Origin: a virus
Lineage: Duplodnaviria > Heunggongvirae > Uroviricota > Caudoviricetes
Virus record (IMG/VR): IMGVR_UViG_2724679538_000003
DNA: 25,866 nucleotides
Reading direction: 5' to 3' (one strand)
Of this stretch, positions 1 through 10,865 are shown in pieces. Every line of letters begins with the position of its first letter. The first letter of the stretch is position 1. The notes beneath the pieces are model-generated. The model did no database searches and was not told where the DNA came from. It worked only from the letters and a program-made list of their open reading frames with translations. The translations under genes and the position numbers were made by a program.

Positions 1-685
1 TTTGCGCTCCAGAAAAGAGTGACGCCCGCGAGTGTGCAGCTCCGGGCGCCGTGGCGTTTTGTGTCTGTGGAGAAACTAACGCATGAACAGTTTAACGGCA
101 AATAACCGTTTGTCGCAACAGCTGGTGATCAGCGTGGCTGAACACCTGTTGTTACGGCATGAATGCAGATTATCAAATCACCTGGCTGTAAGTAACCACA
201 GAGAACTTTACCTGACTGTGGGGGGCGAGTTGTGCAGGAACTTAACCGCTGGTTTCGTGACGGAAGAGGGCTTTATGTCCATGTTATTCGTTGGGAGCCA
301 GAAACACAGCGCGTTATCTATCTTCGCAAAGACTACCCGCATGAGTGCTTTAGTCCTTTGTGGAAATTCAGGCGTGATTTTGTTGAGTGCGAAGAAACAC
401 CAGCACATTGATTCTGTCATTCCGGGACGTTACACTGTTCAGGCACCTTATAAAGCGGGTGCCGGGATTGGCGTCCTGGAATTGCATACGGCGACAATTG
501 GCGCGTTAGCGTCTTTTTTGTTGCTACAACTCAGCTATACCCAAATTATGGTGGGCTGGGTGGGGGCACCGAAAGGTGCGCCGGTTTCCGTATGCGCCGG
601 TTACGCCAACCCTGCTCAGTTCACCACCAGCGAAATTGGCGTTTCCGGTGGTGGAAGTTATCCATTGCATACGGAGGCTGCCATC

Positions 686-1231
686 ATGGCTACTGTCCCA
701 GCCCTCACTCGTCCCGAAATTACCATTGCTAACGGTCAGGCCGTTACTTCCTCGTTGGCCATTGCTGACTACTTCTCCAAGCGTCACGATGATGTTCTGA
801 AAAGAGTACGTGCGCTGGAATGTTCACCGGAATTTAACGCCCGCAATTTTGCGGCGGTCGAATACGTTGATGCGAAAGGTGAGCTCCGTCCTGCTTACCA
901 AATCACCCGCGACGGCTTTGCGTTTCTTGCTATGGGTTTCACGGGTAAACGTGCTGCCCAGTTCAAAGAGGCATATATCAATGCCTTTAACCAGATGGAG
1001 AAACAGCTTTCAAAGCCCTCTGTACCGAGCGACGTTGCACATAACGCCAGCGTTCTCTGTTCCTACATTTCATCAATTCATCATGTCTGGCTGCAGCAGC
1101 TTTATCCTATGTTGGCAAAAGCCGAATCTCCGCTGGCTGTTAGCTTATATGACTATATTAATGATGCTTCGGCGCTGGCCTGCCTCATAAATTTGTCGCT
1201 GAACCCTTCAGAGGTAAGGGGGCGCAAATGA
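686..1231 (+). CDS. Phage regulatory protein Rha family (about 181 aa)
   Basis: ATG at 686 preceded by GGAGG (674-678); N-terminal region (TSSLAIADYFSKRHDDVLKRVRALE...FNARNFAAVEYVDAKGELRPAYQITRDGFAFL) has the character of the Rha domain as I recall it. The track ORF 83..1231 extends upstream in frame, but that extension has no SD and looks non-protein-like. Confidence 0.75.
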   Translation: MATVPALTRPEITIANGQAVTSSLAIADYFSKRHDDVLKRVRALECSPEFNARNFAAVEYVDAKGELRPAYQITRDGFAFLAMGFTGKRAAQFKEAYINAFNQMEKQLSKPSVPSDVAHNASVLCSYISSIHHVWLQQLYPMLAKAESPLAVSLYDYINDASALACLINLSLNPSEVRGRK

Positions 1232-1452
1232 TCCGGAATATTTTCAAACGGTTTACCAATCAGACTTTCCGTTGTCCTCGTCCGGGTCAGTGGTACACCA
1301 CGCCTGCAGGGCATGTTCTACGTGTTAGCCTGGTTGACCGTGAATGTCAGAAAGTGATTTGTGAACCGCTGGGCCGTAATTACCGCGTCAGTATGCCGCT
1401 TATAGCCTTTCGCTCTGGAAAAAACATGAAGCATCTCGGAGGTGCAGCATGA
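1228..1452 (+). CDS. Hypothetical small basic protein (74 aa), translationally coupled
   Basis: ATGA overlap with the Rha stop (1228-1231) and again with the start of the next gene (1449-1452); an operon-internal position typical of real small phage genes. No recognisable family. Confidence 0.5.
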   Translation: MIRNIFKRFTNQTFRCPRPGQWYTTPAGHVLRVSLVDRECQKVICEPLGRNYRVSMPLIAFRSGKNMKHLGGAA

Positions 1453-2281: not shown

Positions 2282-2761
2282 ATGAGCCTGATGAGTGAGA
2301 TTCAAAAATTCATTGAAAGCAATCCTGGATGTACGACCGGTGATATTGCGAATGCGTTTGCATACTTTCCACGTCCCCGTGTACTGAATACGACCAGTAA
2401 GTTACGCCAGTGCAGACGTGTCGCTTATCGCAGTGAAGGCAAAACACACAGGCATTTTTCTCGCAAGGCTGTGTTGCCACCTGAGCCGGTGCTGAAGCAT
2501 ATGAGTGTGGCCAGTAAAAGCTACGTCGGCACTAATGATCAGCGGGTGATTTTGCGCCTGATTCAGCAGGCAGAAGATCTGGAGTCCAGAGGTTTATTCC
2601 GTCGTGCTGCAACGGTGTGGATGGAGGCATTCCGTGAAAGCCACTCCCAGTCAGAACGAAACAATTTTCTGGCGCGTCGTGAGCAGTGTTTACGGAAAAG
2701 CAGCAAGCGCGCTGTATCGGGTGATGAGTGGTATCTGTCAGGGAATTACGTGGGGGGTTAA
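2282..2761 (+). CDS. PerC-like transcriptional regulator (159 aa; C-terminal PerC-like motif)
   Basis: AGGGGG SD at 2271-2276, ATG at 2282. Motif LESRGLFRRAATVWMEAF matches the PerC/Pch family signature (LE..G..RRAA..W) as I recall it. The longer track ORF 2204.. has no SD. Confidence 0.6.
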   Translation: MSLMSEIQKFIESNPGCTTGDIANAFAYFPRPRVLNTTSKLRQCRRVAYRSEGKTHRHFSRKAVLPPEPVLKHMSVASKSYVGTNDQRVILRLIQQAEDLESRGLFRRAATVWMEAFRESHSQSERNNFLARREQCLRKSSKRAVSGDEWYLSGNYVGG

Positions 2762-3087
2762 TGACGACGTTAACTCAATGCCAGCAGCAGGTGCTGGATA
2801 TGCTGATTTCTTATCAGAAAGAACGTGGTTTCCCGCCAACCAATCAGGAGGTGGCAGCCATGCTGGGATACCGTTCGGTGAATGCAGCGGTGGAGCATCT
2901 TCGCGCACTGGAGAAAAAAGGCGTCATCACGATAAAGCGTGGCGTGGCCCGGGGGATAACGCTTCATACCGTAGTGAAGGACGACGACAGCGAGGTGGTC
3001 GGGATTATCCGCGCACTGCTTGCCGGTGAGGAAAACGCCAGGCTGCGTGCAACTCACTGGTTACATGAGAGGGGCTTGAAAGTATGA
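2761..3087 (+). CDS. LexA-like N-terminal DNA-binding-domain protein lacking the S24 peptidase domain (108 aa)
   Basis: TAATG overlap with the upstream stop. Residues 1-69 (MTTLTQCQQQVLDMLISYQKERGFPPTNQEVAAMLGYRSVNAAVEHLRALEKKGVITIKRGVARGITL) align position by position with the E. coli LexA N-terminal wHTH as recalled; the C-terminal 40 aa show no protease motifs. Confidence 0.75.
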   Translation: MTTLTQCQQQVLDMLISYQKERGFPPTNQEVAAMLGYRSVNAAVEHLRALEKKGVITIKRGVARGITLHTVVKDDDSEVVGIIRALLAGEENARLRATHWLHERGLKV

Positions 3088-3473
3088 AGCTTATCCTGCC
3101 TTTCCCGCCCAGCGTGAACACGTACTGGCGACACCCTAACAAAGGGGCGTTTGCAGGTAAGAGCCTGATAAGCGCGGCGGGGCGAAAATTCCAGAGCGCG
3201 GCGTGCGCTGCAATAGTTGAGCAGTTACGACGTCTGCCGAAACCAACGTCGGCACCTGCTTCAGTGGAGATCGTGTTGTTTCCTCCTGATAACCGGATCC
3301 GCGATCTGGACAACTATAACAAGGCGCTGTTTGACGCCCTGACCCACGCGGGGGTGTGGAAAGACGACAGCCAGGTGAAAAGAATGCTGGTGGAGTGGGG
3401 ATCGGTTATCCCGGAAGGGAAGGTCGAGATCACTATCTGTAAGTACGAGAAAACGGCGGGTGCAGCTGCCTGA
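3084..3473 (+). CDS. rusA: Holliday junction resolvase RusA
   Basis: ATGA overlap with the upstream gene; 129 aa; sequence (MKLILPFPPSVNTYW...DLDNYNKALFDALTHAGVWKDDSQV) is typical of RusA. Confidence 0.85.
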   Translation: MKLILPFPPSVNTYWRHPNKGAFAGKSLISAAGRKFQSAACAAIVEQLRRLPKPTSAPASVEIVLFPPDNRIRDLDNYNKALFDALTHAGVWKDDSQVKRMLVEWGSVIPEGKVEITICKYEKTAGAAA

Positions 3474-3492
3474 TCAAGAGGAGAAACGAAGT

Positions 3493-4302
3493 ATGAATAA
3501 TCTGATGGTCATTGATGGTATTGAAGTTCGTCGTGATGCTTATGGGCGTTACAGCCTGAACGATCTGCATCGCGCAGCAGTAGCATCTGGTGCAAATGCC
3601 AGAACCAAGGAGCCAGGAAAGTTTCTTTCCAGCCAACAAACTGTTGAGCTTGTTCATGAATTAACCAACACCCAGAATTTGGGTGTTGACCCGGTGAGTG
3701 TGATTCATGGGGGAAATGAACGCGGAACGTATGTCTGTAAGGAACTGGTGTATGCCTATGCAATGTGGATCAGCCCGTCATTCCATCTGAAGGTGATCCG
3801 TACTTTCGACATGGTAACCAGCGCACCGGAAAAATTATCCGGACAGGCTGCTGACAAGATGCAGGCTGGTGTGATTCTGCTGGACTTTATGCGCCGGGAA
3901 TTAAACCTGTCTAACTCTTCAGTGCTTGGTGCCTGTCAGAAACTCCAGGAGGCTGTTGGCTTACCGAATCTGGCACCGCGCTATGCCATTGATGCTCCTG
4001 CTGACGCGCCTGATGGCTCAAGCCGCCCCACGCTGTCACTGAGTGCACTGCTGAAGCAGTATGGTATCCGCCTGACGGCTAATCAGGCATATCACCAGAT
4101 GGTGAAGCTGGGGATCGTTGAACAACGCGAACGATACAGCCGTACCGCGATTAACAACATCAAAAAATTCTGGTCGCTGACGGCGAAAGGCTGCATGTTC
4201 GGCAAGAACATCACCAGTCCTGCAAATCCGCGCGAGACGCAGCCGCATTTCTTCGAATCCCGATTCCCTGAGCTGTTAAAGCTGCTCGATACCGTTCATT
4301 GA
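3493..4302 (+). CDS. KilA-N domain protein (antirepressor-like)
   Basis: AAGAGGAG SD then ATG at 3493. N-terminus (MNNLMVIDGIEVRRDAYGRYSLNDLHRAA...ELVYAYAMWISPSFHLKV) is KilA-N-like; the C-terminal half is unassigned. Confidence 0.75.
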   Translation: MNNLMVIDGIEVRRDAYGRYSLNDLHRAAVASGANARTKEPGKFLSSQQTVELVHELTNTQNLGVDPVSVIHGGNERGTYVCKELVYAYAMWISPSFHLKVIRTFDMVTSAPEKLSGQAADKMQAGVILLDFMRRELNLSNSSVLGACQKLQEAVGLPNLAPRYAIDAPADAPDGSSRPTLSLSALLKQYGIRLTANQAYHQMVKLGIVEQRERYSRTAINNIKKFWSLTAKGCMFGKNITSPANPRETQPHFFESRFPELLKLLDTVH

Positions 4303-6693: not shown

Positions 6694-6995
6694 AAAAAAA
6701 TTCCTTAATACTGATAACTGGGCGCACTATACACACGTTCCTGAAGAAAGCTATAGTTTTTTGATGGGGTTGAAGATGGCTGGATGTCTAAAATAAACAT
6801 TGCTTCATATGTTCAACTATGCGTTAATGATTGCGTCGGTTTGAAGAACAGACGATATACGAAGTAGTTTACTAAAGCAGTTCTCATTTCAGGTGTTATT
6901 CACTTATTCCTTCTTTGAGTCTCTCCAATTAAGTACGAAGTCGTTTCTGTTATACAAGCCATTTATGCCGAAAGGCTCAAGTTAAGGAATGTAGA

Positions 6996-7211
6996 ATGTC
7001 AAATAAAATGACTGGTTTAGTAAAATGGTTTAACGCTGATAAAGGTTTTGGCTTTATTTCTCCTGTTGATGGTAGTAAAGATGTGTTTGTGCATTTTTCT
7101 GCGATTCAGAATGATAATTTTCGAACCTTATTTGAAGGTCAAAAGGTTACCTTCTCTGTAGAGAGTGGTGCTAAAGGTCCTGCAGCAGCAAATGTCATAA
7201 TTACTGATTAA
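6996..7211 (+). CDS. cspB: Cold-shock protein, CspB-like
   Basis: 71 aa, [38 protein letters not shown]...; canonical CspA-family RNP motifs; about 290-bp upstream leader typical of csp genes. Confidence 0.9.
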
Positions 7212-7492
7212 AATTCATAGTTTGTCTGTATACGATAACGAAGAAGGCTGATGCCTGAGTGGAGATACAGACAGAGTGGTGAATATTGGATCTCTTTAAT
7301 AAATAGTAAGGAGGTCCAATACATGAAACAATGGCCAGCATATTTGGCAATAACTTAATCAGGAAAAGTATGCTAACCATTGTGGTGAAGTGCAGGTTTG
7401 CTGCATGAATAGTTTTACAGCAGAAGCTAACTGCTGGCATAGCAAAACAAAGTGCGTAAGTGGATGACTCCCACAAAAAGTACCACAATATT

Positions 7493-7963: not shown

Positions 7964-8179
7964 ATGAAATCAATGGATAAGTTAACAACAGGTATCGCCT
8001 ATGGCACATCGGCTGGTAATGCTGGTTTCTGGGCATTGCAGTTACTCGATAAAGTAACTCCGTCACAGTGGGCTGCAATCGGTGTGCTGGGTAGTCTGGT
8101 TTTTGGCCTGCTGACGTATCTGACAAACCTTTATTTCAAGATTAAAGAAGACAGGCGTAAGGTTGCGAGAAGAGAGTAA
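7964..8179 (+). CDS. Class II holin (phage 21 S-like pinholin) with dual-start motif
   Basis: GGGGTGAGG SD; starts MKSMDKL (Met1 and Met4 dual start as in S21); two TMDs ([19 protein letters not shown] and [23 protein letters not shown]); charged C-terminus. Confidence 0.85.
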
Positions 8180-8183
8180 TCCA

Positions 8184-8735
8184 ATGACACAAGACTATGA
8201 ACTGGTTGTGAAAGGAGTCCGCAATTTTGAGAATAAAGTGGCGGTAACTGTAGCCTTACGGGACAAAAAACGCTTTGACGGTGAAATTTTTGACCTGGAC
8301 ATCTCGCTGGACCGTGTTGAAGGTGCCGCGCTGGAGTTTTATGAGGCAGCAGCCAGAATGAGAATCAGACAGGTATTCCTGGATGTTGCTGCCGGGTTAT
8401 GTGTAGGGGATGAGCAGTCGCCGGAAAAGCGCCCCATAATTTTAGAGGCGCAGAATGTGTGGATAACCTACAAAGGAAAGCTACCGGGAAGAATTACTGG
8501 TTCTCTGAAGACGCCGCCGACGGCATTGCGGTCAGAAAAAGATGATATTGAATCGCCCATTGAAAAACTGGAGGGCAGCGTCGCTGATCTGAATAAAAAA
8601 TTGTCGGTGCTGATCCCTTCTGAAGATGAAAAAAAACGCCGCGATGAGCAGTTTGCGGCGTTTTACGATTATTGCATTGAAGTTACTCGCAGGAGTTTTG
8701 TGAAGATTTTTGAGGAGGGTAAATCTCTTCAGTAA
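8184..8735 (+). CDS. Hypothetical protein (183 aa) inserted between holin and endolysin; occupies the position ydfR has in Qin
   Basis: ATG at 8184 with a GAGAG SD 7 nt upstream, directly after the holin stop; soluble, charged, no TMD. Family not assignable from sequence. Confidence 0.7.
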   Translation: MTQDYELVVKGVRNFENKVAVTVALRDKKRFDGEIFDLDISLDRVEGAALEFYEAAARMRIRQVFLDVAAGLCVGDEQSPEKRPIILEAQNVWITYKGKLPGRITGSLKTPPTALRSEKDDIESPIEKLEGSVADLNKKLSVLIPSEDEKKRRDEQFAAFYDYCIEVTRRSFVKIFEEGKSLQ

Positions 8736-10084: not shown

Positions 10085-10447
10085 ATTAATATTAAATCGG
10101 ATTATTTTTAGCGCTGAATGTGAAATTTAAATAAAAAGGACTCTTCCATGAGTCAAAATCCTTGAAATCTTAAGGGTAAGATAAAAGGTCATTAGACAGA
10201 ATGACACGTTTTATTAATAAATAAAGCTATTGTTTCATTCGTGTGTTTTTCTTTACAAAAGTAATCCTTGCTATGGTTGGTTAATCATGCGTTAATGGTG
10301 TTCTGGTTTGTTACAAAATTATCTGAAGCAGTCATTGTTATAATTTTATTATTTGTACCTCTTGAGATTTCCTTGTTGGTTTTTCTCTCTGATATTTTTT
10401 TTCGGACCATTCTGCCCAAGGGCTAACTTCTTCAAAAGGTAATAATG

Positions 10448-10660
10448 ATGTCTAACAAAATGACTGGTTTAGTGAAATGGTTTAACCCTGAAAAAGGTTT
10501 TGGTTTCATCACGCCGAAAGATGGTAGCAAAGATGTGTTTGTCCATTTCTCAGCTATTCAGAGCAACGATTTCAAAACGTTAACTGAGAATCAGGAAGTC
10601 GAATTTGGTATTGAGAACGGACCTAAAGGCCCCGCGGCTGTTCATGTAGTGGCACTTTGA
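10448..10660 (+). CDS. cspI: Cold-shock protein, CspI-like
   Basis: [45 protein letters not shown]...; about 350-bp AT-rich leader upstream. Confidence 0.9.
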
Positions 10661-10865
10661 GGTAGAAAATATTACAAACCATATTCACTTTAGATGCCCG
10701 TGTTGCCATGGTTCGCAGTATAGAACATCATCTTTTGATGTTTCTGACAGGAATCCTTTCGGGGCAAAATGTATCTTTTGTAAATCAATGATGATTACAT
10801 TTGATAATATTTCACAATACTTAAATGTTAGCCGTCTGTCGTTAGATTTAAGAAAGTGAAAATGA

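Follow-up and report, generated by a model that had tools for sequence, protein, structure and literature searches.

A stop-free stretch ahead of a prophage Rha-family gene is very probably a row of known parts that includes an isrK/C4 RNA cassette

Why does the reading frame of a phage regulatory gene stay free of stop codons for some 600 nucleotides upstream of its own ribosome-binding site? The window analysed here, a 25,866-nucleotide stretch of caudoviricete DNA (IMG/VR record IMGVR_UViG_2724679538_000003), poses this question at its 5' end, where the frame of a Rha-family gene is open from position 83 to 685; in shuffled sequence the probability of meeting no stop is about 5e-5. The original prediction, which had described this stop-free frame correctly, offered a decayed gene, a dual-coding region, a structured leader RNA and an operator/promoter region as possible explanations. 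We find it highly probable that positions 1-685 are a row of known prophage parts, i.e. the 3' end of ymfL, a 145-nt spacer, a DUF4222 gene and an isrK/C4 cassette governing Rha; the features of the supposedly unexplained leader are present, and the region is made of familiar components. The switch that precedes Rha is an already known kind of phage immunity system, and the odd stop-free stretch comes down to a known RNA-based immunity/antirepressor switch plus a small gene. This answer is carried by matches to known families, by covariation both within the RNA structure and, three ways, among the a and b sequences, by a segment-by-segment assessment of coding status, and by homology to the cassettes of Gifsy-1, VT2-Sakai and P4.

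Many E. coli prophages carry this segment at 84-94% identity, as do phages SfV, mEp460, cdtI and several Stx phages. It belongs to the early-right operon, the prophage being a lambdoid one of the SfV/mEp460/cdtI type. The gene order in the relatives is a cI-like repressor on the opposite strand, a cro-like gene, ymfL, the region under study, Rha, a small ORF and a replication protein. An upstream gene had been suspected to end at the window edge, and this gene is ymfL: its 3' end occupies positions 1-86 of the + strand, is read from position 3, and closes with ...CAPEKSDARECAAPGAVAFCVCGETNA* on a TGA at 84-86, a stop that had been found but placed at 85-87. In RefSeq and phage records of 92-94% identity the annotated ymfL ends exactly at position 86, preceded by a cro-like gene and a divergent cI-like gene; a Pfam match to ymfL was not possible with the 28 codons that lie inside the window. 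The other frame open at the edge, which stops at TAA 103-105, is present as described.

The ymfL stop overlaps ATG83 as ATGA, and this ATG, preceded by GGAG at 69-72, opens the long + strand frame 83-1231, which has no stop before 1229. Genome annotation commonly merges the cassette into this frame as a 382-aa 'Rha family regulator / peptidase', and an identical 382-aa protein is present in NCBI. Annotations differ, with a Rha protein of 382-383 aa (sometimes called 'peptidase') in some genomes, DUF4222 (232-411) plus a 296-aa Rha starting at ATG341 in others, and an 'immunity region' in SfV; 'C4 antisense RNA' and a'/b' features are already annotated in some phage records.

A comparison of codon positions across homologs, which the original prediction had proposed, detects coding in 686-1231 and in the DUF4222 gene and no coding signal in 413-685. 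The Rha-family (Bro-network) regulator gene of 181 aa extends from 686 to 1231 on the + strand, and its variants fall 82/75/205 on the three codon positions with a pN/pS of 0.30. Phage_pRha (Pfam PF09669) matches residues 222-307 of the 382-aa ORF (E 1e-28, 100 bits against a cutoff of 29.9). The start at 686 is led by a Shine-Dalgarno (SD) sequence as had been claimed, GGAGG at 673-677, and both the SD and ATG686 are kept across genera; distant Rha relatives align from residue 202 onward only. Given this conservation and the point at which distant relatives begin to align, we take 686 to be the regulated start.

The second protein-coding segment lies in another frame. This frame is open from 196 to 411 after a TAA at 193-195, and in it the DUF4222 gene (232-411, + strand, 59 aa) starts with GTG behind a G-rich SD at 220-229, in which the G run noticed earlier consists of six G (220-225). 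The product matches DUF4222 (Pfam PF13973) with E 9.4e-14 and 51.2 bits against a cutoff of 27, and PGAP annotates the gene in some genomes. Its variants are distributed 13/7/28 over the codon positions, 26 of the 28 at third positions being synonymous, and within 233-340 pN/pS is 0.09 in the DUF4222 frame versus 3.6 in the Rha frame. Even at 77% nucleotide identity, in phage Stx1_14040, the protein remains conserved, and there it starts with ATG. Positions 232-411 are thus a real DUF4222 gene with protein-like evolution, and the idea of a dual-coding region holds in an unforeseen sense: this second frame is a gene, and the Rha-phase frame across it and across the RNAs is kept open and yet not conserved as a protein. 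For both families, PF13973 and PF09669, the members in the window score above the cutoffs, evolve like proteins and show nothing unusual. A 74-aa ORF at 1228-1452, DUF4222-like by eye, was without a Pfam match.

Between ymfL and DUF4222 lies the spacer (87-231), in which there is neither a clear coding signal nor a significant RNA fold. Variants in 83-231 fall 22/27/31 on the codon positions of the Rha frame, with a pN/pS of 0.42 in this frame and 0.92 in the other forward frames. The most diverged lineages vary here chiefly at codon position 2 of the Rha frame; the changes in the spacer number 6/13/8 by codon position relative to a Citrobacter locus (L005) and 7/13/11 relative to an IMG/VR locus (L207). 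A search for structured RNA in 87-240 gave a fold z-score of -1.29 and no Rfam matches even at E up to 1. The spacer comprises conserved blocks at 86-120 and 153-186 and a variable patch at 121-152. Phage Stx1_14040 is without it, DUF4222 there following directly after another gene, and 87-231 is therefore dispensable in that phage.

The G run in front of DUF4222 allows a further reading of the spacer, namely that a programmed -1 frameshift at G GGG GGC (220-226) fuses a 47-codon leader starting at ATG83 to DUF4222. The heptamer of the window does fit X XXY YYZ in the Rha frame, and a -1 slip there enters the DUF4222 frame. However, the same position reads GGGGGAT in the Citrobacter and IMG/VR loci just named, DUF4222 owns a start codon, which in Stx1_14040 is an ATG with no spacer upstream, and the would-be leader in 83-231 is without coding signal. 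We rejected this candidate because the slippery heptamer is not conserved, and we give such a fusion practically no chance of being correct.

The 274 nt from 412 to 685 on the + strand form an RNA regulatory cassette with two full-length Rfam matches above threshold, and it is here, for positions 443-631 (isrK plus C4), that the option of a structured leader RNA applies. The first match is an isrK-type RNA (Rfam RF01394) at 443-519 on the + strand, full length and with 61.2 bits against a gathering threshold of 50. It is an a1/b1 leader: a1, TTGGCGT at 468-474, lies in a hairpin loop, b1, GCATACGG, lies at 484-491, and a terminator scan places an intrinsic terminator at its end (stem 500-513, T6 514-519, + strand). 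The c4-a1b1 model RF03163 reaches 21.4 bits in the window against a gathering threshold of 46.7 and passes in Gifsy-1, VT2-Sakai and Brenneria. A promoter-like site on the + strand at 408-436 consists of TTGATT as -35 (408-413), a 17-nt spacer and TACACT as -10 (431-436), with a predicted start near 443. It aligns column for column with the TTGACA/TATATT of Gifsy-1 upstream of the isrK 5' end, which is the transcription start implied by the numbering in the Gifsy-1 paper (first orf45 AUG at +107; PMC4825925). A consensus promoter scan of positions 1-1300 returned no site at threshold, the site at 408-436 matching at 8 of 12 positions, and so the promoter call depends solely on the alignment to Gifsy-1. 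With this site and the terminator at 500-519, the option of an operator/promoter region is partly right.

The second match is the C4 antisense RNA (Rfam RF01695) at 544-631 on the + strand, with 80.7 bits against a gathering threshold of 45 (E 1e-14) over model positions 1-87 of 87. A closing stem encloses two hairpins, and the 3' end reads ...CACCACCA. The GC-rich segment with a GAAA hairpin that had been singled out is hairpin 1 of this RNA (gcacc-gaaa-ggtgc, 566-579), and the repeated gcgccggtt, at 577-585 and 593-601, supplies the arms of hairpin 2 (580-601). The loop of hairpin 2 holds b' (CCGUAUGC, 588-595), and the single-stranded segment that follows holds a' (ACGCCAA, 603-609). Among 17 sequences from several genera, 13 of the 26 pairs in the consensus fold carry compensatory changes, which bears out the covariance check for conserved structure. 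Downstream of C4 lie its targets, a2 (TTGGCGT, 636-642, + strand), which is the complement of a', and b2 (GCATACGGA, 667-675, + strand), which overlaps the Rha SD and pairs with b' over 667-674.

The relationship among these short sequences is three-way: a' and b' have exact complements both upstream, in a1/b1, and downstream, in a2/b2, in 13 of the 14 loci tested, and in those loci b2 adjoins or overlaps the SD. In an 18-sequence alignment a'/b' and a2/b2 are 86.9% paired, versus 60.8% when shuffled and 36-42% when slid, with 71 double-change cells where 25 are expected; for a1:a' together with b1:b' the corresponding values are 92.7%, 63.4% and 30-48%. Among them b' occurs in at least eight different versions and a' in five, and the pairings covary across at least eight specificity classes in several genera. 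In E. coli-type relatives, 413-685 falls into seven classes that are 62-90% identical, in which invariant blocks alternate with wholly different blocks, and all seven carry the isrK and C4 pair. Directly before a start codon, the pair recurs in phages of E. coli, in Citrobacter, Brenneria, Dickeya, Buttiauxella, Endozoicomonas and Marinomonas, and in Gifsy-1, VT2-Sakai and P4. Since a and b differ in concert from phage to phage, the hypervariable segment is explained without a protein, and the covarying sequences are immunity-like specificity classes. From the many such classes among E. coli, Shigella and Stx phages it can be predicted which prophages are able to cross-control each other's antirepressors, and this cross-control bears on prophage induction, toxin phages included.

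The closest parallel is with Gifsy-1. In Gifsy-1 and VT2-Sakai the cassette is an unannotated spacer of 272-274 nt before ORF6N-family antirepressor-type genes. The Gifsy-1 locus aligns end to end with positions 400-700 of the window, including the promoter position, isrK with its terminator, the a/b complementarities, the SD and the start of the antirepressor-type gene; the spacers measure 272 and 274 nt, and both loci match isrK and C4 in Rfam. In Gifsy-1 the isrK promoter gives rise to the short IsrK RNA and to a read-through isrK-orf45-anrP mRNA (Hershko-Shalev et al. 2016, PMC4825925), IsrK supplied in trans lifts anrP translation about 140-fold (PMC4825925), and orf45 is translated and coupled to anrP, its nucleotide sequence being conserved and its peptide not (PMC4825925). 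Hfq binding and trans-activation of the downstream gene are known only for the Gifsy-1 isrK (PMC4825925). The paper is without mention of c4 (PMC4825925), and by coordinates orf45 is the C4 region. An AUG some 106 nt from the transcript start, at the 5' end of the C4 region, is shared too: the first AUG of Gifsy-1 orf45 is that of the conserved AUUAUGGUGGG, whose counterpart by alignment is the AUG at 548-550 inside the 5' end of C4 on the + strand of the window, in frame with Rha here. The two loci differ in three respects: (i) the downstream gene is of the ORF6N family in Gifsy-1 and of the Rha family in the window, (ii) orf45 runs in a different phase and has its stop on the anrP start (AUGA), whereas the frame in the window is fused to Rha and open far upstream, and (iii) in Gifsy-1 the cassette lies behind antQ, within the late-regulation region, whereas that of the window lies between ymfL/DUF4222 and the replication genes.

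A second parallel is immI of P1/P7, where c4 RNA controls ant and antirepressor synthesis is blocked by pairing around the ribosome-binding site (PMC12197685, PMC8201110). The window shares with immI the match to the C4 family, two antisense segments with target copies on both sides of the RNA gene, a downstream target that extends over a ribosome-binding site in front of an antirepressor-type gene, and specificity that comes from covarying a and b sequences. It differs in that no icd-like gene separates the targets from the regulated gene, b2 lying over the Rha SD itself, in that the regulated protein is of the Rha family rather than Ant, and in that the element is a lambdoid prophage and not a P1-type plasmid prophage. 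RNase P processing and Rho-dependent polarity are known from P1 (reported by Citron & Schuster 1990, Biere et al. 1992 and Hartmann et al. 1995).

Combining the anatomy of the cassette with the published homologous systems, we suggest that the switch most likely works as follows. The promoter at 408-436 would start transcription near 443, and part of this transcription would end at 519 to give a short RNA bearing a1/b1. From read-through transcripts C4 would be excised by processing, its a' and b' would pair with a2 and b2 and occlude the Rha SD, and the antirepressor-type Rha protein would not be made. The short isrK RNA, which carries the same a1/b1 sequences, could then compete for C4 or for the structured mRNA and turn Rha translation on. 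That a processed, stable C4 represses antirepressor synthesis we infer from P1/P7, P4 and Gifsy-1; how the promoter is used, how the RNAs are processed, in which direction regulation runs and what Rha does are likewise presumed for the window.

How, then, is the open frame itself to be read? The database annotation takes Rha as a two-domain protein of 382 aa (or 296 aa) with an N-terminal Ash as a folded domain. Phage_ASH (Pfam PF10554) indeed matches full length and above cutoff (E 9e-18, 65.1 bits against 26) over residues 117-212, i.e. nucleotides 431-718; proteins of 382-383 aa stand in PGAP and phage records, and the frame is open in relatives, in 60 homologs and in 104 sequences collected by a DNA anchor. 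This match at first spoke in favour of a protein, but codon positions, pN/pS and frame-broken relatives spoke against it. In 413-685 pN/pS is 0.7-1.3 in all six frames, variants fall 75/72/75 on the codon positions of the Rha frame and nucleotide diversity is 0.17-0.30, which supports the earlier impression that the 200 encoded residues look non-protein-like; within 233-340 the Rha frame shows the excess of nonsynonymous change given above. The matched stretch coincides with isrK and C4 and is devoid of codon periodicity, its seemingly conserved residues being RNA-conserved blocks and its variable residues covarying RNA sites. Elsewhere, in other genera, this stretch of nucleotides has a broken frame or is read in a different one, and it is followed by unrelated genes starting 'MAT...', a pattern that pointed to RNA; the P4 member of PF10554 is an ORF that covers the gene for CI RNA. 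A protein domain should show purifying selection on its peptide and one reading frame throughout its relatives; both were sought for Phage_ASH, and neither was found. Homologs annotated with a 382-aa Rha, which the original prediction had named as evidence against itself, do formally exist in databases, but what is conserved in the N-terminal extension is RNA and an open frame, not an amino-acid sequence, and we consider the two-domain protein improbable. Rather, the sequence comparisons indicate that the Pfam 'Ash domain' is likely to be the translation of isrK/C4 RNA genes and not a conserved protein domain.

The non-protein-like composition and the pN/pS near 1 in 83-231 and 413-685 would equally suit a decayed gene or pseudogene remnant that is still open by accident. 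A neutral remnant, however, would gain stops and frameshifts at identities of 62-85%, and there are none in 104 unique sequences; moreover, two strongly covarying RNA families lie in the segment and, in DUF4222, an intact gene under selection. On these grounds the decayed-gene option is not supported, and we regard it as very improbable.

With the switch explained by RNA, the points left over are modest, namely the likely RNA origin of the Ash profile and a frame that is kept open. All 60 unique homologs in the alignment keep the long frame open, and all indels within 83-1231 are multiples of three. The first set of homologs had been chosen by tblastn with the 382-aa query, which might favour open frames, and the test was therefore repeated on loci fetched by an exact 29-nt DNA anchor, independent of protein similarity: the Rha-phase frame is open across the cassette in 104 of 104 unique sequences in 10 classes. 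Shuffling of the variable columns alone gives a probability of an open frame of 0.10-0.19 in each of the 10 classes, both halves of the cassette contributing and the +1 frame behaving as the null predicts; the allele classes are related, so that combining these probabilities overstates them. An ATG lies 6-12 codons before a conserved '...IDSAIPGRY' in each of five unrelated upstream contexts, and in Stx1_14040 the in-phase ORF begins 2 nt after the preceding gene and is open across the DUF4222 gene of 77% identity. It thus seems that this lineage maintains the open frame to a degree beyond chance, with a peptide that is not conserved.

The open frame and the repeatedly supplied ATGs suggest that translation matters and that a purely non-coding description is incomplete. 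As an extension of the main explanation, ribosomes could begin at ATG83 through coupling to the ymfL stop, or at some other start upstream, and continue as far as Rha, crossing on the way DUF4222 (which is in a different frame), the isrK terminator, C4 and a2/b2; the act of translation and not the peptide would be what matters. Such passage might prevent termination or Rho polarity in an operon with replication genes, or it might free Rha from C4 in lytic growth. It would fit a frame held open beyond chance, indels confined to multiples of three, ATG starts arising in five independent contexts and in Stx1_14040, and an ATG83 equipped with GGAG and with the ATGA overlap with ymfL. There is precedent in Gifsy-1, where orf45 over the C4 region is translated and is required for the coupled translation of anrP (PMC4825925), and in P4 the end of the ORF that covers the CI RNA overlaps the epsilon gene. 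Against it, the allele classes are not independent, and three to five in-phase stops interrupt the segment in Gifsy-1, VT2-Sakai, P4-like islands and Endozoicomonas, where the cassette works without an open frame; in addition, the conserved SD and ATG686 favour normal initiation at 686, and a transcript that starts at 443 could not encode the upstream part. We hold pass-through translation to be plausible at somewhat less than even chances. The stronger version, that the open frame is maintained on purpose and read by ribosomes from the ymfL stop across a nested gene, a promoter, an sRNA terminator and an antisense RNA into Rha, with a peptide that is free to vary, we regard as possible but rather doubtful. 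If it were true, translation would be a device that moves ribosomes over a terminator and an antisense-blocked site and protects 600 nt of the early operon against polarity, and the widely used Pfam 'Ash domain' would be the protein shadow of RNA genes.

The P4 immunity region, with seqA, CI RNA and seqC upstream of epsilon, also resembles the window. It has isrK and C4 matches in the same order and on the same strand, in line with a report that the C4 and isrK Rfam profiles pick up relatives of P4 CI and seqA (PMC10111431), and the families of the downstream genes differ. The P4 immunity RNA works via premature transcription termination (PMC10111431), unlike the translational block that is suggested for the window by the position of b2 over an SD. 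An ORF annotated over the CI RNA matches Phage_ASH like the ORF of the window and runs into the antirepressor gene epsilon. In annotation the 'Ash domain' counts as a protein domain whose function is unknown, and one published pipeline takes it as a marker for P4 epsilon; the Pfam profile here tracks isrK/C4 RNA genes instead, and in P4 the C4 match sits inside the old 'cI' CDS, the Phage_ASH match being that CDS and not epsilon.

What the Pfam family PF10554 ('Phage_ASH') describes seems to be translated isrK/C4 RNA genes (seqA/CI in phage P4) and not a conserved protein domain. PF10554 matches window positions 431-718 and, in phage P4 (L234), positions 8168-8584 on the minus strand, where the P4 member of the family is the old 'cI' CDS overlying the CI RNA. 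The P4 epsilon protein, in contrast, matches a different family, PF25738; PF10554 serves as the epsilon marker in one published satellite-detection pipeline (PMC8628076).

Some prophages (L033, L137, L145, L172, L198 and L161) carry a second tandem copy of the entire RNA cassette together with Rha, and the two copies differ in a/b specificity. In L033 this is seen at 2646-3527, and the exact 29-nt anchor used to fetch homologous loci matches twice each in L137, L145, L172 and L198. The ORF of the second copy takes its first 11 codons (MIRNIFKLFTN) from the 74-aa gene downstream of Rha, with the junction at ...HQHIDSAIPGRY, and in L161 a single ORF of ~600 aa spans two cassettes. Three database proteins (P0002, P0003 and P0004) are far longer, at 478-598 aa, with unchanged Ash and Rha Pfam content, and are probably read-through ORFs over tandem cassettes or adjoining genes. 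Positions 2321-2742 of a Buttiauxella MAG (L029) hold a tandem run of C4 matches, three in number, together with a single isrK match, suggesting arrays of antisense RNAs with differing specificities.

Among ~83 unique sequences sharing this context, a single one is broken, the IMG/VR contig L177. A 1-nt deletion right after its DUF4222 start codon, near the equivalent of window positions 232-240, shifts the frames; the contig is a mutant, or the deletion is a sequencing error.

The 74-aa ORF (1228-1452, plus strand), whose ATG overlaps the Rha stop codon (ATGA), had no match in a Pfam search; it is kept adjoining Rha in relatives, with a length of 77 aa in Stx1_14040. Further downstream, the ORF at 1449-2279, a replication-protein homolog, contains iteron-like direct repeats at 1714-1880: three copies of a GTGCAGGAGATTCAC-type repeat (1714-1818) and a 12-nt unit, GAACCAGTCAAA, reiterated over 1821-1880. 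These repeats may constitute a replication origin within the initiator gene, the arrangement known from lambda O.

Finally, two full-length matches to the Rfam cspA thermoregulator on the plus strand, at 6835-7274 (156 bits) and 10290-10706 (112 bits), imply that the prophage holds two cold-shock-protein genes with long 5' leaders.
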